This document shows positions 33,737-57,000 of a stretch of DNA of 64,000 nt, piece after piece. The notes beneath the pieces were generated by a model, which worked only from the letters and a program-made list of their open reading frames with translations, ran no database searches and was not told where the DNA came from. Location of the stretch: positions 960,001-1,024,000 of the forward strand of contig CP060223.1 of NCBI GenBank assembly GCA_023898465.1, read 5' to 3'. Numbering within the stretch: the first letter of the stretch is position 1; each line of letters opens with the position of its first letter. This stretch comes from Candidatus Nomurabacteria bacterium. GTDB taxonomy: Bacteria; Patescibacteriota; Patescibacteriia; HK-STAS-PATE-3. The position numbers and the translations under genes were made by a program.

Positions 33737-34309
33737 ATGATTGCCATACTCCGCGGAAAAGTTATTCAACTTGGTGAAAAAACTGCCATTCTCGATGTGC
33801 AGGGCGTTGGTTATGAGCTTTTTCTCAGTCCAAATGTGCGCGCATCGTTGAACGTAGATCAAGATATTACTCTGCATACCTATCTGAATGTGCGGGAAGA
33901 TGCCATGGAACTCTATGGTTTTCAATCAGCGGCCGAGCGTTCATTCTTTAAGCAGCTTATTTCGATTTCCGGTGTTGGACCAAAAAGTGCGCTGGGTGTG
34001 TTGGCAGTAGCAAGCTTGGATGAGGTGAAACGAGCAGTGGCCTCTGGTGATGCCAGTATGCTGACCAAGGTGGCCGGTATAGGGCGTAAGACGGCTGAGC
34101 GTATTGTGGTTGAGTTGAAGGAAAAACTAGTCGGAGAAGTATTAGAATCCCAAGGCGCCACAGCCGGCGACAGTGGTATTTTGGAAGCGCTGCAAGGCTT
34201 AGGGTATTCACTTATGGAAGCACGTGAGGCAGTTCGCGGGATCCCGGCTACTATTGAGGGTTTTGATGAGCGATTGAAAGTGGCCTTAAAGATGATTGGA
34301 AAGTCATAA
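33737..34309 (+). CDS. ruvA: Holliday junction DNA helicase RuvA
   Basis: 190 aa. MIAILRGKV..GVGYEL N-terminus and HhH motifs (ISGVGPKSA, VAGIGRKTAERI). Confidence 0.9.
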   Translation: MIAILRGKVIQLGEKTAILDVQGVGYELFLSPNVRASLNVDQDITLHTYLNVREDAMELYGFQSAAERSFFKQLISISGVGPKSALGVLAVASLDEVKRAVASGDASMLTKVAGIGRKTAERIVVELKEKLVGEVLESQGATAGDSGILEALQGLGYSLMEAREAVRGIPATIEGFDERLKVALKMIGKS

Positions 34310-35316
34310 TGGACGTTAGGGAAATAAGTGACGCGGTAGCTTGGGATGGATTTATCGGAGCGCAAAATCAAGCGCAGTTTTTACAGTCTTGGCATTGGGG
34401 TGAATTTCAGCGAGCGCTAGGTCGACAAATAGTACGCCTGGGTGTCTTTGACGGAGCGCGGCAACTCGCAGCCGCCCAAGGTGCCATTTATCATCTGCCG
34501 ATGAATCAACGCTATCTCTATATTCCTCGTGGCCCCATTATGCTGGACTATACTGACAAAGCAGTGTGGCAGGCGCTTCATCAAGCCTTATTGGAGCGGG
34601 CGCAACAAGCTCGTGCATTGGCGATTCGGATAGAGCCACTCATGCTCCGCAGCGCTGAAGCACCATCGATTGTTGAGTTGGGGTATCAACAGACTGAGGC
34701 AATGCAGCCGGCTGATACACGACTCCTTTCCCTTCACACAAGCGAGGATGACATCCTAAATGCAATGCATCAGAAGACTCGCTACAATATTCGCTTGGCT
34801 GAGAAGAAGGGTGTGCAGGTGATAACGACACACGCGGAAAAAGACCTCGAGACCTTTTTACAGCTCCAGCACGTGACCGCGAGCCGCGATAACATTAGCC
34901 CCTTCCCAGACAGCTACTTCCGCACAATGTTTGCGACTTTACCAGAGCTCATGCGCTCCATCGTGCTGGCGCAATACAACGGCATGACCCTAGCAGCCAA
35001 TCTCATGATTCGTTATGGCGATACCATGACCTATAGTCATGGTGCTTCATCAAATGAGCATCGAAATGTGATGGCACCCTATCTTGCCCAATGGCGATCA
35101 ATTCAACACGCAGCGCAGTCAGCTTTGAAATGGTATGACTTCCGTGGTATTGCACCGAGTGACGATCCACAACATGCCTGGGCTGGTATTACACGTTTCA
35201 AAGCCGGCTTCGGTGGCGAGGCGGTGCATCTCATTGGCACCTATGATTTCCCAGTTGAAAAAGGTTGGTATCAAGCCTATATGTTTGGTAGGAAGTTAGT
35301 CGGCTTGGTCCGTTAG
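34309..35316 (+). CDS. FemAB-family peptidoglycan interpeptide-bridge aminoacyltransferase
   Basis: 335 aa. FLQSWHWGEF N-terminal motif typical of Fem/MurM proteins. One-nt overlap with the ruvA stop. Confidence 0.7.
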   Translation: MDVREISDAVAWDGFIGAQNQAQFLQSWHWGEFQRALGRQIVRLGVFDGARQLAAAQGAIYHLPMNQRYLYIPRGPIMLDYTDKAVWQALHQALLERAQQARALAIRIEPLMLRSAEAPSIVELGYQQTEAMQPADTRLLSLHTSEDDILNAMHQKTRYNIRLAEKKGVQVITTHAEKDLETFLQLQHVTASRDNISPFPDSYFRTMFATLPELMRSIVLAQYNGMTLAANLMIRYGDTMTYSHGASSNEHRNVMAPYLAQWRSIQHAAQSALKWYDFRGIAPSDDPQHAWAGITRFKAGFGGEAVHLIGTYDFPVEKGWYQAYMFGRKLVGLVR

Positions 35317-35480: not shown

Positions 35481-35557
35481 GCGCCCGTAGCTCAGTTGGA
35501 TAGAGCGTATGGTTCCGGTCCATAAGGTCGTAGGTTCGATTCCTGCCGGGCGCACCA
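35481..35557 (+). tRNA. tRNA-Arg (anticodon CCG)
   Basis: Manual cloverleaf. Acceptor GCGCCCG/CGGGCGC, D-arm GCTCAGTTGGATAGAGC, anticodon stem TATGG/CCATA with loop TTCCGGT, T-arm GTAGGTTCGATTCCTGC, and an encoded CCA. Confidence 0.85.
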
Positions 35558-39454: not shown

Positions 39455-39850
39455 ATGCGAAAACGAGTAAAAAAAGAATTTGAGCAGCGCTCTACGTGGC
39501 AAGATAGAATCGCCGATACAATAACTCGTTTTTCCGGTTCAATGACTTTTGTTTACCTCCACATCGGATGGTTTATTTTATGGTTAATAGTGAATGGTTT
39601 AGAGGGAACAAAGCCATGGGATCCCTATCCATACAACTTCCTCACTCTGATTGTTTCACTGGAAGCGATTTTCCTTTCCACCTTTGTGCTTATTTCACAA
39701 AACCGTGAATCTGAGCGGACCGATGTGCGCGATCAGCTTGACTATGAAATTGATGTGAAGGCTCAGGAGCAAATCGAACGCATTATGAAGAGCCTGGAAC
39801 GCATTGAACGCAAACTCAATACTAGCAGCAAAAAAACAAAGCAAAAGTAG
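39455..39850 (+). CDS. DUF1003 family membrane protein
   Basis: 131 aa, 2 TM. WQDRIAD.IT.F.GSM.FVY.H..WF..W......PWDPYP..LL.L..SLEAIFLS.FVL..QNR pattern. Confidence 0.65.
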   Translation: MRKRVKKEFEQRSTWQDRIADTITRFSGSMTFVYLHIGWFILWLIVNGLEGTKPWDPYPYNFLTLIVSLEAIFLSTFVLISQNRESERTDVRDQLDYEIDVKAQEQIERIMKSLERIERKLNTSSKKTKQK

Positions 39851-39880: not shown

Positions 39881-41188
39881 ATGTTGAAACAGCTACTCAG
39901 ACCTTTTATCCCACGATCAATCCTTTTAAGTTATCATCGTTGCCGAGCGCATTTGACCGCGTTTCGTTTTGGCTATCCGGGTAAGAAGCTGCGCGTCATT
40001 GCGGTGACCGGCACAAATGGGAAATCAACAGTAGTAGAGTGGATCGGGCAATTGCTTGCTCTCATGGGTGAGCCGGTAGGATGGATTTCTACCGCATCGG
40101 TTCGTATCGGCGATGAGACAAAGCTAAATACAACGAAGTTGACTACGGCTGATACGAGTTTTTTACAGTCTCATCTTGCTAAAATGGTGCGAGCAGGCGC
40201 AAAGTATGCAGTTCTAGAAGCTTCCTCTCAGGGCTTAGCGCAAGGTCGTTTGAACGGGGTGCCGATTCAGGGTGCAGTTTTTACCAATCTCACACCAGAA
40301 CATATTGAATGGCACGGATCGATGTTGGCATATCAACGGGCTAAGGAGCTATTGTTTCAAAGACTCATGTCGAGTGCTCGTGTAACAGATGCCCCAAAAG
40401 TGAGTGTGGTAAACGGAGACGACCCAGTGGCTGATGCCTTTCTTCGCTACCCAGCGGATAAAAAGGTTGTATGTACTCTGTATGGAAGCGTGCACACAAA
40501 AGCTGACGTGCATCGTCGAGCCGAAATTGTTGAGCAAAACGAAAAAGGAACCCGCATTCGTATTGAGGAGCATGAGGTGTTTTTACCTTTTCTTGGGCGC
40601 TTCAATGTGATGAATGCCCTGGAAGCAGTAGCCGTGCTTGAGCAATATGGTTTCCCATTAGCTAAGCTAGTACCTGCATTGGCGCAGTTAGTGCCGGTAC
40701 CGGGACGCTTAGAGTTTATTCCAAGTAAGCGCGATTTTCAGATTTTAGTCGACTATGCGCCTGAACCAGCTTCTATGCAGGCGCTTTATCAAGTGCTTGA
40801 GCAGCTCCATCCAAAGCGTATATTGCATGTTTTTGGTTCGGCTGGCGGTGGACGTGATAAGAGTCGGCGTCCAGTGCTCGGCAAATGGGTGGCCGAACAC
40901 GCAGACCTTGCTATTGTGACAAACGAGGATCCTTATGACGAAGACCCAGAGCAGATAATTGACGATGTTGTAGCCGGAACAAAAGAGGCCTCACCCCTTC
41001 GTGCCCAAGTTGAACGGGTATCTGATCGTCGGCAAGCCATTGCCCATGCACTTTCCCTAGCAAAATCAGGCGATTTAGTCGTAATTACCGGCAAAGCATC
41101 TGAACAATGGCTGATGGGCCCAAAAGGTACGCGCCAGGCCTGGGACGATCGTCAGGTTGTGCGCGAAGAACTCGGGAATAGACTTTAA
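39881..41188 (+). CDS. murE: Mur ligase family protein (MurE-like UDP-MurNAc-tripeptide synthetase)
   Basis: 435 aa. P-loop VTGTNGKST, LEASSQGL, TNLTPEHIEWHGS, C-terminal Mur ligase domain. Confidence 0.6.
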   Translation: MLKQLLRPFIPRSILLSYHRCRAHLTAFRFGYPGKKLRVIAVTGTNGKSTVVEWIGQLLALMGEPVGWISTASVRIGDETKLNTTKLTTADTSFLQSHLAKMVRAGAKYAVLEASSQGLAQGRLNGVPIQGAVFTNLTPEHIEWHGSMLAYQRAKELLFQRLMSSARVTDAPKVSVVNGDDPVADAFLRYPADKKVVCTLYGSVHTKADVHRRAEIVEQNEKGTRIRIEEHEVFLPFLGRFNVMNALEAVAVLEQYGFPLAKLVPALAQLVPVPGRLEFIPSKRDFQILVDYAPEPASMQALYQVLEQLHPKRILHVFGSAGGGRDKSRRPVLGKWVAEHADLAIVTNEDPYDEDPEQIIDDVVAGTKEASPLRAQVERVSDRRQAIAHALSLAKSGDLVVITGKASEQWLMGPKGTRQAWDDRQVVREELGNRL

Positions 41189-49091: not shown

Positions 49092-49116
49092 CGCATCCCT
49101 GCTAGCTCTTGGAACA

Positions 49117-49152
49117 GCGGCCATACTCCGTGTATGGCCGCTCCTTTTCTTG
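49117..49152 (+). terminator. Rho-independent terminator before ftsK
   Basis: gcggccata-ctccgtg-tatggccgc followed by tccttttctt. Confidence 0.6.
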
Positions 49153-49192
49153 CTTTGTTTATTGCCTAAAAAAGTGGTACAATACGCAGGCT

Positions 49193-51493
49193 ATGGCAAC
49201 GAAAAATGTCCGACGTCGGGGCCGTCCGACGCCTTGGGATACTGACGAAGAGCAGGCCCCAGAGGAATCACAACTCAGTCCAGAGACGAAGCGCGGAATT
49301 ATAGTAGTTGTGATTTTTGTGGCCGCCCTTGTTTTCATTTTAGGATTTTTTGACTTGGCTGGTGTGGTGGGCGAGTGGCTAGACAAAGGTCTAGGTTGGC
49401 TTTTTGGTTGGTCAAGGTATCTCCTACCTCTTTTTCTGGTGGCTATCGGCTTCGCGCTACTGAAACCTGACACGATTCGCCTGCGCGCCTGGGCCTATGT
49501 GGGCGCTGGGCTATTTATGATTGCTTTTGCTGGTCTACTTCACCTCCTGGTTGATGAAGCAGAAATACAAAATGCGATAACTGACGGGCGCGGCGGCGGC
49601 GGAATAGGATATGTTATGCGACAAGGTTTAGAAAGCATGTTTGGCCAGATCGCGGCGATCACTATTCTCTTAGCCCTGTTGATCATCGGTGTACTTGTTA
49701 TGTTCAACACTACATTGCACGCTATTGCCGGACAGCGCACGGTGGTAGATCGCAGCATGAACCGTCTACGCTTCTGGTTTTATCGTCTGAAGATTGCTTT
49801 TGAGTCTCACAAAGATGAAGAACCAGAAGAAGAGGAAGAAGATGTAGAGGAGGATGAGCGAGAATTCACTGCTCGTGATATTGCTGGTGCAGAAGATGGT
49901 GAGGAAGAGGGAGAAGGAGAAGAGGACATCCCAGCTCATGGTGAAGGCACTCAAGCGCAAATATTTCCAAAAGTCCGTCGCAAGAAGCGCAAGGCTGACG
50001 TGCCGATTAATCTCTTAGAACAGAAACACGAAAAGCCGATGAGCGGCAACATTGAAGAAGGCAAGCAAAAAATTAAGCGTACACTTGAGACTTTTGGCAT
50101 CGACGTAGAAATGGATGAAGTCAACGTAGGTCCAACAGTCACTCAGTACACTCTGAAGCCAGCCGAGGGTGTGAAATTGGCTCAAATAACCACACTGCAG
50201 AACGATCTCGCGCTTGCCTTGGCGGCCCACCCAATTCGTATTGAGGCGCCGATTCCCGGTAAGTCCTTGGTTGGTATTGAAGTGCCGAATAAAGCCAGCG
50301 CGGTGGTAACTATCCACGAAATGCTCAGCTCGGATAATTACTCCAAGCGTAAATCAAACCTAAGCCTCGCTCTAGGTAAGGATGTGGCGGGCAATGCTTG
50401 GGTAAGCGATCTCGATCCCATGCCTCACTTGTTGATTGCTGGTTCAACTGGATCAGGAAAGTCGGTTTGTATCAACACAATTCTGATGAGCTTGCTCTAC
50501 AGTAATACACCTGACGACTTGCGACTTATCATGGTTGACCCAAAGCGGGTGGAGTTAAGCAACTATAATGGTATTCCACATTTGCTCACGCCAGTCATTA
50601 CTGATGTTGATAAAACAGTGCACGCTTTGAAATGGGTGGTAGGTGAAATGGATCGCCGCTATGAAACACTCTCTCAGACGGGCAAGCGAAATATTAAAAT
50701 GTATCGCGAGGAAATCGACGATGGCATGCCATACATTGTCGTTGTCATCGATGAGTTAGCTGATTTAATGGCTGTGGCCTCTCGTGATGTAGAAGCAGCA
50801 ATTGTTCGCTTAGCTCAAATGGCTCGAGCAGTTGGCATCCACTTAATCGTAGCAACCCAACGACCATCGGTTGATGTTATTACTGGGCTTATTAAGGCAA
50901 ACATCACTGCACGTATTGCTTTTAACGTTGCATCAATTATCGACTCACGCACGATTTTAGATTTGAGTGGCGCTGAGAAGCTGCTTGGTAAAGGTGATAT
51001 GCTTTTCCTATCTTCCGACCTCTCTAAGCCAAAACGTTTGCAGGGTGCCTTTGTTTCAGAAAAGGAAATTGAGCGAGTGGTTGATTATCTCAAAGATCAA
51101 GCTGAACCGCAGTATGTTGAAGAAGTGACCGCTCGTCCGAAATCAGCCATTGGGGCGGGTGGATCCGATATGAGCGGCGAGGATGACTTACTCGAGGAAG
51201 CAAAAGAAGTTATTTTACGGGCTGGTAAAGCCTCGGCCTCTCTTCTCCAGCGGCGTTTACGCGTTGGCTATGCTCGAGCTGCTCGTTTGCTCGACTTACT
51301 CGAAGAGGAAGGCTTCATTGGTCCAGGTGAAGGAGCAAAGCCGCGTGAAGTTTTGGGCGGAGTGCCGGTCAGTAATGATGGCTTTGATGTAGCAGAGGAG
51401 CTAGATGATGAAGAAATTGTTGAGGATGATGGCGAAGAAGCAGAAGTGGCAGATGACGATGAAGAAGAGGACGAAGAAGAGTCGCGCGCATGA
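49193..51493 (+). CDS. ftsK: DNA translocase FtsK/SpoIIIE
   Basis: N-terminal TM segments, acidic linker, Walker A LLIAGSTGSGKSV, gamma-domain wHTH (LLQRRLRVGYARAARLLD), and a poly-acidic tail. Confidence 0.9.
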   Translation: MATKNVRRRGRPTPWDTDEEQAPEESQLSPETKRGIIVVVIFVAALVFILGFFDLAGVVGEWLDKGLGWLFGWSRYLLPLFLVAIGFALLKPDTIRLRAWAYVGAGLFMIAFAGLLHLLVDEAEIQNAITDGRGGGGIGYVMRQGLESMFGQIAAITILLALLIIGVLVMFNTTLHAIAGQRTVVDRSMNRLRFWFYRLKIAFESHKDEEPEEEEEDVEEDEREFTARDIAGAEDGEEEGEGEEDIPAHGEGTQAQIFPKVRRKKRKADVPINLLEQKHEKPMSGNIEEGKQKIKRTLETFGIDVEMDEVNVGPTVTQYTLKPAEGVKLAQITTLQNDLALALAAHPIRIEAPIPGKSLVGIEVPNKASAVVTIHEMLSSDNYSKRKSNLSLALGKDVAGNAWVSDLDPMPHLLIAGSTGSGKSVCINTILMSLLYSNTPDDLRLIMVDPKRVELSNYNGIPHLLTPVITDVDKTVHALKWVVGEMDRRYETLSQTGKRNIKMYREEIDDGMPYIVVVIDELADLMAVASRDVEAAIVRLAQMARAVGIHLIVATQRPSVDVITGLIKANITARIAFNVASIIDSRTILDLSGAEKLLGKGDMLFLSSDLSKPKRLQGAFVSEKEIERVVDYLKDQAEPQYVEEVTARPKSAIGAGGSDMSGEDDLLEEAKEVILRAGKASASLLQRRLRVGYARAARLLDLLEEEGFIGPGEGAKPREVLGGVPVSNDGFDVAEELDDEEIVEDDGEEAEVADDDEEEDEEESRA

Positions 51494-52200
51494 GCACCTT
51501 CCGGAGAAAGCAACTGCGAGCTAGCATCACTTTGGGTGAGCGCCTAAAATCCCATCGCCTTGAACAGGGCTGGGAAATTTTTGATGTAGCTGAGTCTACT
51601 CATATTGCACAGAAATATATTCAAGCCCTAGAAGAAGGCGCCTATGGTCAATTGCCTGGCGAAGTGTACATTCGAAATTTTCTCCGCCAGTACGCAAACT
51701 TTCTTCGCGTGAGTCCTGATGATGTTATTAGCTCATATGAAAAAGAGCGAGGCCTGGTTAAGCATCTGTTAAATAAAGATAAGAAGTTTGTCCAACGACA
51801 CGTAGATGTGAAGCCAGTCTTCACTCCTCGAAGATTGCGCATCCTAGGCTTTACTACCATTGTCGTCGTCGTTCTTGCGTACTTAGTTGTACAAGCGTGG
51901 TCAATTATTCGGGCGCCGGAACTTGTGGTAGATAGCCCGGAGCCACAACTGACAACCATCGAACGGACTATTAAGGTGGGCGGAATGACCGAGGCAGAGA
52001 GCGAAGTAACTATCAACGGACAGCGAGTTTTAATTGATACCGAAGGGCGTTTTAGCGAGTTAATTGATTTACATGAAGGATTAAATACCATTCAGGTGGT
52101 GGCGAAGAAAAAGCGTAGTCAGGCCAGCACCATAACCCGACAAGTATTAGTGACCATCCCGGAAATCCAGGACGTTGACACGAATAGTGACAACCGATAG
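51490..52200 (+). CDS. rodZ: RodZ-like cytoskeleton protein (XRE-type HTH + TM + C-terminal domain)
   Basis: N-terminal [39 protein letters not shown] and a TM segment (~aa 120-140). ATGA overlap with ftsK. Confidence 0.6.
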
Positions 52201-52235: not shown

Positions 52236-53276
52236 ATGGCAACAAAAACAAGCAGTCAGGAAAACGATAGCGCCGGACGCGGCAAAGCAGCTGAAATAGC
52301 TATTGAGCAAATTCGCGAGCGTTTTGGCGACGGTTCGATTATGAAGCTGGGAGAAGCACGTAAATCTGATGTGGAAGCAGTTTCCACTGGATGCTTATCC
52401 CTTGATATTGCTCTTGGTGTTGGCGGCGTACCCCGTGGGCGCGTTATTGAGATTTATGGACCGGAAGCTTCAGGTAAAACAACCCTTGCTCAGCACATTG
52501 TCGCCGAGGCACAGAAGAAAGGCGGTTTAGCGGCTTTTATCGATGCTGAGCACGCGCTTGACCCTGACTATGCTCGTAAGATTGGCATTAAGGTTGATGA
52601 TTTACTCATTTCTCAGCCTGATACCGGCGAGCAAGCCTTGGATATCTTAGAGACCTTGGTGCGTTCAAACGCAGTAGATATTATCGTCGTTGACTCGGTT
52701 GCTGCCTTAACACCAAAGGCGGAAATTGAAGGAGAAATGGGTGACTCACATATGGGTTTGCAAGCTCGCCTCATGAGTCAGGCCTTACGTAAGCTTACCG
52801 CTCTAATTTCTCGATCTCGCACCATTGTTATCTTCATCAACCAAACACGCATGAAGATCGGTGTCTTCTTTGGGAATCCTGAGACAACCACAGGTGGTAT
52901 GGCGTTGAAGTTTTATTCCTCAGTTCGCATCGAGATTCGACGTATTGGTCAAATTAAGCAGGGCGAACGGATTATTGGTAGCCGCACTAAAGCAAAAGTA
53001 GTGAAGAATAAAGTGGCCGCACCATTTAAGGTGACCGAGTTCGATATCATGTACAACGAAGGAATCTCCGTAGCCGGCGACCTCATTGATACTGGTCTCC
53101 AATATGGCGTGGTTGAAAAACGAGGTAATACCTATTCCTTTGGTGAAGCCAAGTTGGGAGTAGGTAATTACGCAGCACGCGACTTCCTTAAAAATGAGCA
53201 GAAATTACAGCAAGAAATTCGTACGCAAATTCTCGCTGCCGTGAAAGCAGAGCAGGAAGAAGCAGACAAAAAATAG
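52236..53276 (+). CDS. recA: Recombinase RecA
   Basis: [11 protein letters not shown] Walker A and the L1/L2 loop region. AAGGAG Shine-Dalgarno. Confidence 0.97.
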
Positions 53277-53325: not shown

Positions 53326-55710
53326 TTAGTAGCCAGTATTCGCGATGATCGTAGAGAGAAACTCAGCCGGAAATTTCGGGGGCTGGTCGGCTAAGGCTTG
53401 ATGGTAAATAACCGTAGATCCAGTTAAACCTGGTAAGGTGTTTACCTCAATAACATGTATTGCCCCAGTTTTGAGATGAACAAAGATATCGATCCGCGCG
53501 TAGCCTCGTATGCCTAGTGCAGTGGCTAGTTCAGCAATACGCTGCCTTACCTTCTCCACCGTCGATCCTTGAATCAAATGTTCAGGCGGTGGCGTGATAT
53601 TAATTCCAGTACCACCTTGGAATTTTTCTTCAACAGTGAGGACTTCACCCTCCGCGATCGTGATACTCGGAGCTAAGGCGTGTATTTTTCCTCGCACCTC
53701 AATCACTCCGGCAGTCATTTCCACCCAACCTGATACTGGCAGGTGCTTCATTTTATTCGCTTTGACCCGTAGCTTGTCAGTGGCAATGAAGCGTTCAATG
53801 AGGAGGCGCTTCGGAGCGGCGCTTGGTAACTCAATAATATCAGCCTGTCCGTGGAAAGTATTTTTAGGTATGTACGCAGCTCTTTTTTGTAGATACGCCA
53901 AGTAGGTTTTAAGATCCTGCGCGGTGAAGATGTGTGCGACTCCAGTTGTGCAGCCATCACTTTGCGGCTTGATAATAAAGGTTTTTGAATGAAGTTCTGT
54001 ATGTAATTTTTTCCAGAGCGCTTCAATTTGGCTACTTGTCATATGCAAAAGCGTGCTCGTCAAGAAGCTTTCTCCAGCAATTGCCTGCACCCCGGGTATG
54101 TTGAGTTGGCGAATGGCTTCCGCAGTTTTCCATTTATCCATACAGAGTTGAGAAGTCGTGGCTGGGGAGCCATTAAATTTTACCTTTGCCTTTTCGCAGG
54201 CTGCCTGAAGTGTCCCGTCTTCACCCTTACCACCATGCAGTGCAATGAAAAGGAAAGATGATGAGTGAAGGAGTTCATTCAGACTCAGTTTTCTCGGGTC
54301 AAAAAAGTCTTGTGCATTCTTCTCTTCTCGTAAACCTAGCTTGATTCGGGCCCGACGCTCAAAGTCCTCCAGCCGATGTTTTTCGTTTGGGTATTGCTGA
54401 CAGTTTTCCATTATTTCCTCTACCGTGTGATTCAAGCTGAGATGGTAGGGCAGCTTCCACACATCGCCATGTGTATCAAGCAAGTAGGGCTGTGGCTCAT
54501 ACTCTTTTGTTTGCCGTAGCTTTAGCCAGACATTTGTTCCACTCATGAGAGAAACCTGGCGCTCGGAGTTGCTCCCACCCATGAGAATTGTCACCGTCTT
54601 CCCTTTCTTTTTTTGTGAAGAGATTTCAGGGAAGTGAACACCTTGACGCGCGCTAGAGTGCTGTACAATGTATTGCAAAACATCCCGATGCGTTAGTCCT
54701 ACTCGAGCGGCCTGCTGGAAAAGAAAACTGTTTTGCTCCATACCGCTTACGGTATTAAAGTCACAGAACCATATTTTTCCATTAGGTAACACCCATCCGT
54801 CAAAACGAGCAGCATCGTGCATGCCAAAGAGGCGGAAGAGCTGTTCCCCTTGCGCCTGAATGCGTTCAATAATCTCTTGGCTAAAGCGAGGAGGGCAGTG
54901 CCATGTTACCTGTCGAGTTGGTAAATATTTCCTGCGGAAGTCAAAGATTTGATGCTCTGTATAGTCTGTTTCAATCTCAGTTGGCGGTAGGGCTACCGGC
55001 AGGGCAAACTGGTTTTCTAGTATGATCATGGTAAATTCCTTGCCCTGCGCAAAAGGCTCCACAACCACCCGGGTATCCATTCGCTTTGAGAAAATGAGTT
55101 TTGTTTTCTCGAGTGCTTCCTGAGGTGTTGCCACTGAAAATACTCCGATACTTGATCCGCCGCTAGCGGGCTTTACTACTGCGCGCTGGACTTTGTTATT
55201 TGCAAAAAAATCTTTGAGTATTTTTTCGTGATCAGTATGAAAAATTTTTAATACCGCGGAGGGAAGGGTAAAAAAATCGTGCCCAGCAATAAATGTATTT
55301 GCCGTGTGCTTATCAAAAGCCAGTCGACAAGCCTTTGATCCGGAGCCAACAAAAGGGATAGCATGTTTTTCTAAGAAACGCTGGATGCCACCATCCTCCC
55401 CAAAAGGTCCGTGCATCGCCGGGAAGGTGATAGCCACTTCTCGTAGCTTTTTCACTAGCGCTGCTGTGGTGAGTGGTGTGGCTGTTTGTTGAAGTTTAAA
55501 ATCAAAATCCGAAGGGGTGTTACTGTAGAGTTGGGCTTGAGAAATTTGATAGGCTTGTTTTTTGTTATCAAAATAAATTGGCACAATCTCAATTTGCTCA
55601 GATTTTAAGTGATCCATGAGCGAGCGAGCCGAGTTTAAAGAGATACCCCGTTCGAGTGAGGGGCCTCCGCAGAGCACTGCTACAGAAAATTTTGCAGATT
55701 TTTTTGCCAT
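53326..55710 (-). CDS. ddl: Tandem D-alanine--D-alanine ligase fusion (two complete Ddl/ATP-grasp units in one 794-aa polypeptide)
   Basis: N-terminal unit begins VAVLCGGPS.ER.ISL.SA. A second unit begins around aa 370 (VTILMGGSNSERQVSLMSG). Each is followed by an ATP-grasp core. Confidence 0.75.
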   Translation of the reverse strand: MAKKSAKFSVAVLCGGPSLERGISLNSARSLMDHLKSEQIEIVPIYFDNKKQAYQISQAQLYSNTPSDFDFKLQQTATPLTTAALVKKLREVAITFPAMHGPFGEDGGIQRFLEKHAIPFVGSGSKACRLAFDKHTANTFIAGHDFFTLPSAVLKIFHTDHEKILKDFFANNKVQRAVVKPASGGSSIGVFSVATPQEALEKTKLIFSKRMDTRVVVEPFAQGKEFTMIILENQFALPVALPPTEIETDYTEHQIFDFRRKYLPTRQVTWHCPPRFSQEIIERIQAQGEQLFRLFGMHDAARFDGWVLPNGKIWFCDFNTVSGMEQNSFLFQQAARVGLTHRDVLQYIVQHSSARQGVHFPEISSQKKKGKTVTILMGGSNSERQVSLMSGTNVWLKLRQTKEYEPQPYLLDTHGDVWKLPYHLSLNHTVEEIMENCQQYPNEKHRLEDFERRARIKLGLREEKNAQDFFDPRKLSLNELLHSSSFLFIALHGGKGEDGTLQAACEKAKVKFNGSPATTSQLCMDKWKTAEAIRQLNIPGVQAIAGESFLTSTLLHMTSSQIEALWKKLHTELHSKTFIIKPQSDGCTTGVAHIFTAQDLKTYLAYLQKRAAYIPKNTFHGQADIIELPSAAPKRLLIERFIATDKLRVKANKMKHLPVSGWVEMTAGVIEVRGKIHALAPSITIAEGEVLTVEEKFQGGTGINITPPPEHLIQGSTVEKVRQRIAELATALGIRGYARIDIFVHLKTGAIHVIEVNTLPGLTGSTVIYHQALADQPPKFPAEFLSTIIANTGY

Positions 55711-55866: not shown

Positions 55867-57000
55867 ATGCTTATGAAACGCTGGCAGAAGATTGTTCTTT
55901 CCGTCGCAGGAGTCTTTTTAATTCCCGGCATAGCTCTGGCAGCTACTATCCAGAGTGGAAATACCTATACTTTAGCCACTAGTGAAACCCTGGAAGGGGC
56001 TTTGTATGTGGCAGCTGGTACAGTAAATGTGGATGGCACAGTCAACGGAGATGTGATGGTGGCTGGTGGCACAGTTACAATCTCCGGCACAGTCAACGGA
56101 GACGTTCTTGCAACAGGCGGGACGGTCTCAGTGACTGGTAGTGTAAGTGAAGATATTCGTTTAGCTGGTGGTCAGTTAACCATTGCCACAACAGTGCCGG
56201 GAGATGTAACAGTTGCCGGTGGATCAGTTACCTTAGAAGATAATGCCGAGGTGATGGGAGATGTGCTAGTGGCCGGCGGTGACCAAATGTTGCACGGCAA
56301 GATCCACGGTAAAGTACGAGCAGCGGGTGGAGATATCACCTTAGCTGGAAGTATTGACGGTGATGTTCGCGTGTATGCTGGTGCGCTTAGCGTGGCTGAT
56401 GGTGCGGTGGTAAACGGTGACCTTACCTATTCCTCGGAGCATGAAGCAAGTATTGCCGCTGGAGCGAATATTGTAGGCACAGTGCATTATGACAAAACCA
56501 CCTATCGCTTAAGCTATGGCTTACTCGGTCTAACTATTGTAAGTCTGATTATCAAATTCCTTGCCTTGATGGTAGCGGCAGTTGTTGTGGCGGCTGGTTT
56601 CCGACGCTACAGCGAGAAGATTGTACACCTCGGACGGATGCAAATTGGTAAGCAGTTTGTGATTGGCTTACTCGTCTTCATTGTTACTCCAATCGCCTTT
56701 GCCATTCTCTTTAGCACGGTTATAGGGAGTATGCTTGGACTTCTCCTCCTTAGCATTTATATAGCCGTACTGATTGGGGCTGGCATCTTTGCTGGCATCC
56801 TTTTTGGAGCTATGGGTATGCGCTTCTTGAAAAAGGATTACCCAGAAAATGGCGACTGGGTTTCCGCCCTCCTAGGAGTATTAGTCTTGCAGCTAATTGT
56901 CCTGATCCCTATCGTGGGTTGGTTAGTCGGATGCTTCTTCTTCCTGCTCGCCCTCGGTAGTATTTGCACTGATAAATGGGTGACGATCAGAGGAAAATAA
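55867..57000 (+). CDS. Bactofilin-like beta-helical repeat protein with signal peptide and a C-terminal polytopic membrane domain
   Basis: Repeated G.V.GDV.V.GG.V.I.G.V.GDV rungs (aa 40-200). Four C-terminal TM helices. Confidence 0.5.
   Translation: MLMKRWQKIVLSVAGVFLIPGIALAATIQSGNTYTLATSETLEGALYVAAGTVNVDGTVNGDVMVAGGTVTISGTVNGDVLATGGTVSVTGSVSEDIRLAGGQLTIATTVPGDVTVAGGSVTLEDNAEVMGDVLVAGGDQMLHGKIHGKVRAAGGDITLAGSIDGDVRVYAGALSVADGAVVNGDLTYSSEHEASIAAGANIVGTVHYDKTTYRLSYGLLGLTIVSLIIKFLALMVAAVVVAAGFRRYSEKIVHLGRMQIGKQFVIGLLVFIVTPIAFAILFSTVIGSMLGLLLLSIYIAVLIGAGIFAGILFGAMGMRFLKKDYPENGDWVSALLGVLVLQLIVLIPIVGWLVGCFFFLLALGSICTDKWVTIRGK

Follow-up and report, generated by a model that had tools for sequence, protein, structure and literature searches.

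A tandem D-Ala–D-Ala ligase encoded by a Candidatus Nomurabacteria bacterium is the bacterial counterpart of plant DDL

Canonical D-alanine–D-alanine (D-Ala–D-Ala) ligases (Ddl) are homodimers of identical chains of ~300–370 amino acids (aa). A stretch of 64,000 nucleotides (nt) from a Candidatus Nomurabacteria bacterium (GenBank assembly GCA_023898465.1, contig CP060223.1, positions 960,001 to 1,024,000 of the forward strand; the whole stretch is hereafter called the window, and all gene and domain coordinates refer to it) contains a gene on the minus strand (53326..55710) in whose product, in contrast, two Ddl paralogues of only ~22% identity are covalently joined. Is this fusion genuine, where does it belong, and what are two such units in one chain likely to do?

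The window protein is the bacterial counterpart of the plant protein DDL (Physcomitrella, Arabidopsis), that is, a known architecture and not a new kind of system, and its host is a small-genome bacterium of the Patescibacteria. We consider it likely that the protein works as a single-chain tandem DDL, in which an ordinary D-Ala–D-Ala ligase constitutes the N-terminal (N) unit and the C-terminal (C) unit is active but has an altered lid, the two forming a heterodimer with its output going to MurF.

Two Ddl units in one polypeptide

The open reading frame (ORF) starts with ATG and encodes 794 aa without any internal stop codon. Searches of the entire protein against Pfam returned both Ddl domains twice (Dala_Dala_lig_N, 3.8e-47; Dala_Dala_lig_C, 8.5e-39), and the motif VAVLCGGPSLERGISL is found at residues 10–25, the motif VTILMGGSNSERQVSLMSG at residues 373–391. 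The protein as a whole scored above the cut-offs of the family models TIGR01205 (311 bits versus 245.65; best stretch, residues 10–351) and NF002528 (299.6 bits versus 262), which is driven by the N unit. When the C half (residues 363–794) was searched separately, it matched both Dala_Dala_lig_N (PF01820; 8.5e-21) and Dala_Dala_lig_C (PF07478; 5e-12) but reached only 118.9 bits with TIGR01205 and 126.3 bits, versus a cut-off of 243, with NF002378, and is therefore clearly a divergent Ddl. An alignment of one half with the other spans both from end to end (22% identity, E = 8e-14). In the PDB, sequence matches of both halves were exclusively Ddl or Van ligases, the best ones of the N unit being Ddl and VanG structures spanning residues 6–349; a search with the whole protein gave, besides these, one weak match to another ATP-grasp enzyme. 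Thus, the proposal of a preliminary description of this locus, that two complete Ddl-like ATP-grasp units are arranged in tandem, is borne out by the domain pairs of the whole protein as well as by the C half alone, which disposes of the possibility raised there that the second half is not an ATP-grasp/Ddl domain.

Between the units lies a linker, the mean column conservation of which (0.50) is below that of the N unit (0.80) and of the C unit (0.71). The coordinates of these parts, and of the codons discussed below, are compiled in Table 1.

Table 1. The tandem ligase gene, its parts and selected active-site positions (coordinates of the window)
Feature	Positions	Strand	Basis or observation
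Complete tandem-DDL gene	53326..55710	−	ORF listing: 794 codons plus stop codon at 53326–53328
N unit (aa 1–355), canonical-looking Ddl	54646..55710	−	Family models, PDB matches, active-site conservation
Linker (aa 356–371), least conserved stretch	54598..54645	−	Column conservation; AlphaFold2 model
C unit (aa 372–794), divergent Ddl paralogue with conserved insertions	53329..54597	−	Domain searches, alignments, AlphaFold2 pLDDT
Tyr262 codon (N-unit equivalent of DdlB Y216, omega loop)	54925..54927	−	Tyr in 68/68 N units
Asp317 codon (N-unit equivalent of DdlB Mg2+ ligand E270)	54760..54762	−	Asp in 68/68 N units
Cys587 codon (C-unit equivalent of DdlB S150)	53950..53952	−	Cys in 66/68 C units; invariant in two further alignments
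Phe697 codon (C-unit equivalent of DdlB Y216)	53620..53622	−	Phe in 68/68 C units, plant DDL included
N unit, 17 active-site positions			E20, H100, K134, K180, S186, S187, E218, E225, K261, Y262, R302, D304, D317, N319, G323, S328, F329; 15/17 at ≥97% conservation
C unit, 17 active-site positions			E383, H492, K526, K581, C587, T588, E639, E664, K696, F697, R739, D741, E755, N757, G761, T766, V767; 16/17 at ≥97% conservation

An identical protein is annotated as "hypothetical protein" in a metagenome-assembled genome (MAG) of Candidatus Nomurabacteria (Patescibacteria), on a contig of 1.08 Mb. The 119 next-best clusters (90% identity) comprise proteins of 764–843 aa with 96–100% query coverage and 59–64% identity, and they originate from many Parcubacteria-type lineages. 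Using the C half as the query, an exhaustive HMMER search found 280 clusters (50% identity) at E ≤ 1e-30 among 1.84 billion representatives; among the matches listed, the C unit almost always occupied residues ~365–790 of a protein of 780–830 aa. A genome scan, which covered one genome per GTDB species, detected a C-type unit in 556 species-representative genomes. The best 80 of these were used for counting in-frame fusions and neighboring genes, and in all but one of them (79/80) a single in-frame ORF encoded both the N-type and the C-type unit. Judged by record titles (MAG labels), the carriers belong to Patescibacteria, TM6/Dependentiae, Parachlamydiales, Coxiellaceae, Francisellaceae, Rickettsiales, and Thiotrichales; loci L047, L026, L050, L057, and L065 are examples from outside the Patescibacteria.

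Could the fusion nevertheless be an artefact of assembly, or of a frameshift, by which two adjacent ddl genes were joined? Split forms or sequencing errors do occur, as in L002 (4841–7218) and L027 (769–3226) the N-type and C-type units lie next to each other as adjacent genes in different frames, overlapping near the linker. These two may be real split genes or may result from frameshift errors; in the former case, the two units can function as separate chains. However, one in-frame ORF in 79 of 80 independent species-representative assemblies, more than 100 clusters (90% identity) of full-length proteins, and the same fusion in plant genomes and RefSeq gene models refute an artefactual origin, which the preliminary description had put forward as an alternative and the probability of which we regard as negligible. 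Stand-alone C-type proteins were also considered, for which matches of 400–430 aa were the candidates. Both that were inspected (L002 and L001) directly follow an N-type gene or a fragment thereof, and most of the others are probably fragments or split genes as well because their contigs mostly measure 1–3 kb.

Kinship with plant DDL

Tandem ligases have been described for plants. PMC9954125 describes At-DDL and its homologue from Physcomitrella as two putative DDL enzymes fused together, an arrangement present across the whole plant lineage, and cites moss Ddl knockouts that lose D-alanine dimerisation and form macrochloroplasts. With this record, and with 556 bacterial species-representative genomes encoding a C-type unit, the earlier statement that MurC–Ddl is the only widespread Ddl fusion turned out to be wrong. 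No paper on a bacterial Ddl–Ddl fusion was found in a literature search, in which the fusion was mentioned in plant papers only; two reviews by Sato do not mention Ddl. Bacterial databases under-annotate the tandem family, most members of which are named "hypothetical protein".

Some long relatives of the window protein contain SAP domains, which is why eukaryotes were suspected among them. Cluster look-up identified P0313 as a Coffea protein (XP_027176337.1), and P0337 and P0342 as proteins of the green algae Myrmecia bisecta and Tetraselmis, respectively. Coffea DDL corresponds to the window protein unit by unit and in the same order: the N units matched each other with 291.7 bits (47% identity) and the C units with 289.5 bits (40% identity), whereas crosswise matches yielded only 12–25 bits. 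Over both units, plant and green-algal DDL are ~42% identical to members from Patescibacteria. The correspondence extends to the active sites (see below), as the signature residues of Coffea DDL are identical at 17 of 17 positions in the N unit and at 16 of 17 in the C unit, including Asp at the position of E270 of Escherichia coli DdlB in the former and the Cys/Phe/Thr/Val set in the latter. The plant plastid proteins (PpDDL, At-DDL, and that of Coffea) thus share the two-unit layout with the bacterial one, and for plant DDL a genetic link to the supply of D-Ala–D-Ala for peptidoglycan, known only from moss, is given in PMC9954125.

The plant proteins have an N-terminal extension of at least ~80 residues, presumably a transit peptide (the match begins at residue 82), and green-algal DDL contains long inserts as well as SAP domains. 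The bacterial enzyme is a cytoplasmic one whose gene often shares an operon with the alanine racemase gene (alr). In P0337 (1876 aa) the SAP domain is located at residues 215–246 and in P0342 (1580 aa) at residues 81–117, and in both proteins very long inserts lie inside the ligase units. SAP domains are DNA- or chromatin-binding motifs, the presence of which in a plastid peptidoglycan enzyme is unexpected.

The N and C units of the tandem are 21.7% identical to each other, and each is ~24% identical to canonical ligases. In a (crude) neighbor-joining tree, the N and C clades were each monophyletic and each included the plant sequences. As the clades are separate, with plants in each, and the N and C units resemble one another no more than they resemble canonical ligases, two paralogues that were already distant were fused once, and the fusion was then passed on in one piece, by descent or by transfer. 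Among non-plant proteins, P0297, P0312, and P0281 are nearest to Coffea DDL, with 45–47% identity. The ~42% identity of plant and green-algal DDL to the Patescibacteria proteins, together with the spread of the bacterial carriers, prompts the question from which lineage plants received the gene; on whether the whole tandem gene passed between bacteria of this kind and the lineage of plants, the evidence is neutral.

What appeared to be an oddity is, hence, the normal form of a DDL family that plants have in common with Patescibacteria and with several bacterial lineages of intracellular or symbiotic habit. New beyond the known facts are the unit-specific residue signature common to bacteria and plants, the linkage to alr, Mur ligase and Alr, and the distribution of the bacterial carriers. 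The residue signatures make a question of plant biology, namely, whether both halves of DDL are active, and on what, accessible in a small bacterial protein.

Active sites and predicted structure

The N and C units of 68 representatives were aligned with five reference canonical or Van ligases, and 17 active-site positions of E. coli DdlB were mapped onto both units. Over its whole length, the DdlB sequence used agreed with PDB 2DLN/1IOV, and the alignment as printed showed no mismatch. The omega loops of VanA and VanB aligned unreliably at the columns of DdlB 215 and 216, and no conclusion was drawn from those two columns. Like canonical Ddl (E. coli DdlB, PDB 2DLN/1IOV; DdlA-type), each unit consists of a Ddl N-terminal domain and an ATP-grasp fold and contains the catalytic residues of DdlB: E15, H63, K97, K144, E180, E187, K215, R255, D257, E270, N272, and G276 are present in both, except that E270 is Asp in the N unit. 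As just ~11% of all columns in either unit reach ≥97% conservation, the enrichment of active-site positions among them is strong (p ~1e-14 for the N unit and 4e-16 for the C unit).

The N unit is canonical (Ser/Tyr), apart from the Asp at E270, a position at which every C unit and each of the five aligned canonical or Van ligases has Glu, and from a residue at L282 that is mostly Phe. The C unit retains all phosphate, Mg2+, and transition-state residues in the alignment but differs from canonical Ddl at four positions, where S150 is replaced by Cys (66/68), Y216 by Phe (68/68), S281 by Thr (67/68), and L282 by Val (67/68). Across the aligned representatives, which range from Patescibacteria to plants, this set varies little or not at all. 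At the position of DdlB S151, the C unit of the window protein has Thr; Coffea and 67 of the 68 C units have Ser.

In DdlB, E15, S150, and Y216 form a hydrogen-bonded lid triad. It is kept in the N unit (E20/S186/Y262) and reads E383/C587/F697 in the C unit. Y216 is the very position that had been proposed for inspection in the search for diverged specificity, and the second unit has indeed diverged there, with Tyr in every N unit and Phe in every C unit. This is a signal for divergence of the C unit, which does not identify its product. Phe697 is embedded in an invariant Gly-rich motif of the omega loop, EEKFQGGTGxNxTPPP, and HMMER paired its segment EEKFQGG with EHKYQAG of Pseudomonas aeruginosa DdlA (PDB 8evx). 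The C unit also contains conserved insertions, for example, a helix at residues 430–458; family-invariant residues of these insertions include W418, P421, Y422, H428, T429, E431, E432, and C437.

An AlphaFold2 model of the 794 aa, built with an alignment of 63 sequences, had a mean predicted local distance difference test (pLDDT) of 88.5 and a predicted template modeling score (pTM) of 0.88 for the whole chain. Low confidence was limited to the N terminus, the omega loops (residues ~250–270 and 688–701), and the linker, of which residues 356–370 were devoid of secondary structure; the pLDDT of the C unit was mostly above 90. Foldseek retrieved only single-unit Ddl or Van ligases from the PDB (target TM-score 0.77–0.88), so the structure of a tandem has not yet been solved; compared with Ddl structures, each unit had TM-scores of 0.8–0.88. 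The model suggests a defined mutual arrangement of the units. As the pTM is high for a chain of two units, they most likely pack together as the intramolecular equivalent of the usual Ddl dimer, and an obligate heterodimer, as the preliminary description had put it, is plausible on the same grounds.

Genomic context and function

When the neighboring ORFs of the 80 loci were clustered, the only recurrent neighbor was an alanine racemase gene. It was present at 22 loci and, at 19, came next downstream in the same orientation, after a median gap of 6 nt; these counts are lower bounds because many contigs end early. At L001 the racemase gene is arranged likewise downstream. Some relatives go further and include additional enzymes in the same chain: P0256 (1262 aa) is a fusion of both Ddl units with a Mur ligase, and P0321 (1638 aa) one of both units with a Mur ligase and an alanine racemase, so that, judged by its domains, a single polypeptide carries as many as four of the activities of the D-Ala branch. 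In P0379 (1244 aa), both Ddl units are followed by a C-terminal PASTA domain. The alr neighbors, the fusions with Mur ligase and Alr, and the moss genetics together assign the protein to the pathway of peptidoglycan precursor synthesis, in its D-Ala branch.

In MurC–Ddl of Chlamydiae (NF011171) and in MurF–alanine racemase (NF008897), too, steps of precursor synthesis that follow one another or cooperate are combined in one chain. The window protein is different, as it scored 143.9 bits with NF011171 (cut-off 1015) and matched only the Ddl part of that model (positions 450–784). No Mur ligase or racemase domain was found in it with Pfam; instead, one Ddl unit is joined to another Ddl paralogue.

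The likely course of events would be as follows. Two anciently diverged Ddl paralogues, joined by a short variable linker, would receive D-Ala from alanine racemase and form D-Ala–D-Ala via an acyl-phosphate intermediate at the expense of ATP, and MurF would add the dipeptide to UDP-N-acetylmuramic acid (UDP-MurNAc)-tripeptide. The N unit, with its full canonical active site, would be an ordinary D-Ala–D-Ala synthase. Because the complete ATP, Mg2+, and acyl-phosphate machinery is kept under strong constraint, the C unit should be catalytically active as well and more than a dead scaffold, although Glu-Cys-Phe in place of the Glu-Ser-Tyr lid triad should loosen or change its substrate selection. 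Catalysis by both units and the nature of their products are inferred; most likely, the product of the C unit in vivo is still a dipeptide containing D-Ala, and probably it is D-Ala–D-Ala.

If the lid of the C unit is altered, would it make something else? In a bifunctional ligase, the N unit would synthesize D-Ala–D-Ala and the C unit D-Ala–X (D-Ala–D-lactate, D-Ala–D-serine, or D-Ala–Gly), which would result in an alternative stem terminus or in a separate D-amino-acid metabolite. A strictly conserved, distinct pattern, with Phe at Y216 in all and Cys at S150 in 66 of the 68 C units from Patescibacteria through plants, suggests a distinct, selected function. The Y216F mutant of DdlB (structure, PDB 1IOW) gains depsipeptide (D-Ala–D-lactate) activity while dipeptide synthesis is kept, and the natural D-Ala–D-lactate ligase of Leuconostoc (LmDdl2, PDB 1EHI) has Phe at this position. 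The C unit shares this replacement of Tyr by Phe. However, Phe alone does not eliminate D-Ala–D-Ala synthesis by DdlB, and neither Cys at S150 nor the Gly-rich omega loop is known to occur in D-Ala–D-lactate ligases of the Phe type; 1EHI matched the C unit with E = 1.9e-7, weaker than many ordinary Ddl proteins, and thereby indicates general Ddl kinship only. Nothing in the present data points to lactate as a substrate. The whole protein scored far below the cut-offs of the Van models (VanG, 214 versus 495 bits; D_ala_D_ser, 183 versus 520; D_ala_D_lac, 151 versus 550; VanA, 123 versus 775), and the C unit alone scored lower still. The residue at L282 is Arg in VanA and VanB but Phe in the N unit and Val in the C unit, and no vanH-, vanX-, or vanT-like gene recurred near the gene in the 80 loci, alr alone doing so. 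With these results, the suggestion that the tandem is relevant to vancomycin-type resistance chemistry finds no support; the tandem DDL is not a resistance determinant. As to plants, reports of D-Ala joined to other amino acids are mentioned in PMC7432710, with no enzyme known, whereas the moss makes an ordinary pentapeptide precursor, as stated in PMC9434261. On balance, a bifunctional ligase appears unlikely to us. Likewise doubtful is the broader idea that the C unit, recognisable by its Glu-Cys-Phe lid and its KFQGGTGxNxTPPP omega loop, is a ligase with a specificity of its own that is conserved from Patescibacteria and other small-genome bacteria to land plants, its second product (a depsipeptide or a D-Ala–X dipeptide) being needed beside D-Ala–D-Ala. 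If true, these bacteria and plastids would contain an unrecognised compound in their peptidoglycan or D-amino-acid metabolism, and the retention of DDL in angiosperms would be explained.

The opposite possibility, that the C unit is a non-catalytic partner that provides only a dimer interface or regulates the N unit, would fit its being the more divergent half, with scores under the Ddl cut-offs, large insertions, and two of three lid-triad residues lost. Pseudo-enzymes, however, normally lose catalytic residues of the kind that are kept here, namely, D741/E755/N757 as Mg2+ ligands, K526/K581/K696 as phosphate-binding lysines, and R739. Conservation of 16 of the 17 active-site positions at ≥97%, despite an identity of only ~39% among the 68 representatives, is equally hard to reconcile with a dead unit, which we therefore consider highly improbable.

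Several points weigh against the favored account of two active units that both serve MurF in an intramolecular heterodimer. The C unit scores under every NCBIfam Ddl cut-off and has, in addition, conserved insertions and the Gly-rich omega loop. That its Cys/Phe/Thr/Val set is invariant speaks for a difference in function that is maintained and not for simple redundancy. The putative intramolecular dimer is deduced from the pTM of the model. In the window, neither alr nor murF adjoins the gene, and a convergent recA lies downstream. Finally, PMC9954125 holds that AtDDL, or its C-terminal half, is still to be shown to be a functional ligase.

Within the window, the gene is flanked by the convergent recA (52236–53276) and by a divergent gene for an uncharacterised membrane protein (55867–57000). 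recA is the last gene of a run on the plus strand, preceded by ftsK (49109–51493) and a RodZ-like gene (51490–52200), and the run ends 50 nt short of the ligase gene's stop codon. The ddl–ddl′–alr operon of about a quarter of the relatives is therefore lacking here; no other Ddl, Alr, or MurF is encoded within the 64 kb. The divergent ORF (plus strand, 377 aa) had no Pfam or NCBIfam match. Its layout comprises, in this order, an N-terminal signal-like segment, a long series of degenerate GDV..AGG.V. repeats (beta-helix-like), and a hydrophobic C-terminal half with multiple spans.

Two further peptidoglycan genes had been noted in the window as pointing to a non-standard stem or bridge. Both are real: 34309–35316 (plus strand) encodes a FemAB-family protein of 335 aa (1.3e-52; weak on the FemX model, with 76 of 500 bits), and 39881–41188 (plus strand) encodes a MurE of 435 aa (TIGR01085, 350 bits versus a cut-off of 257). 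The conclusion drawn from them does not follow, and they have no bearing on the tandem ligase because they are ordinary peptidoglycan genes located 12–19 kb away, with unrelated housekeeping genes in between (rpoB/rpoC-sized ORFs, ftsK, and recA). The MurE homologue begins at position 71 of the 472 profile positions, ~30 residues ahead of the P-loop, and is thus without the usual N-terminal UDP-binding domain. No upstream extension of its ORF is possible, and the product of the 131-aa ORF before it (39455–39850) resembles a small membrane protein. The FemAB-family ORF is translationally coupled to ruvA (33737–34309), and just downstream of it lies the sole Rfam match in the window, a tRNA (35481–35554, plus strand).

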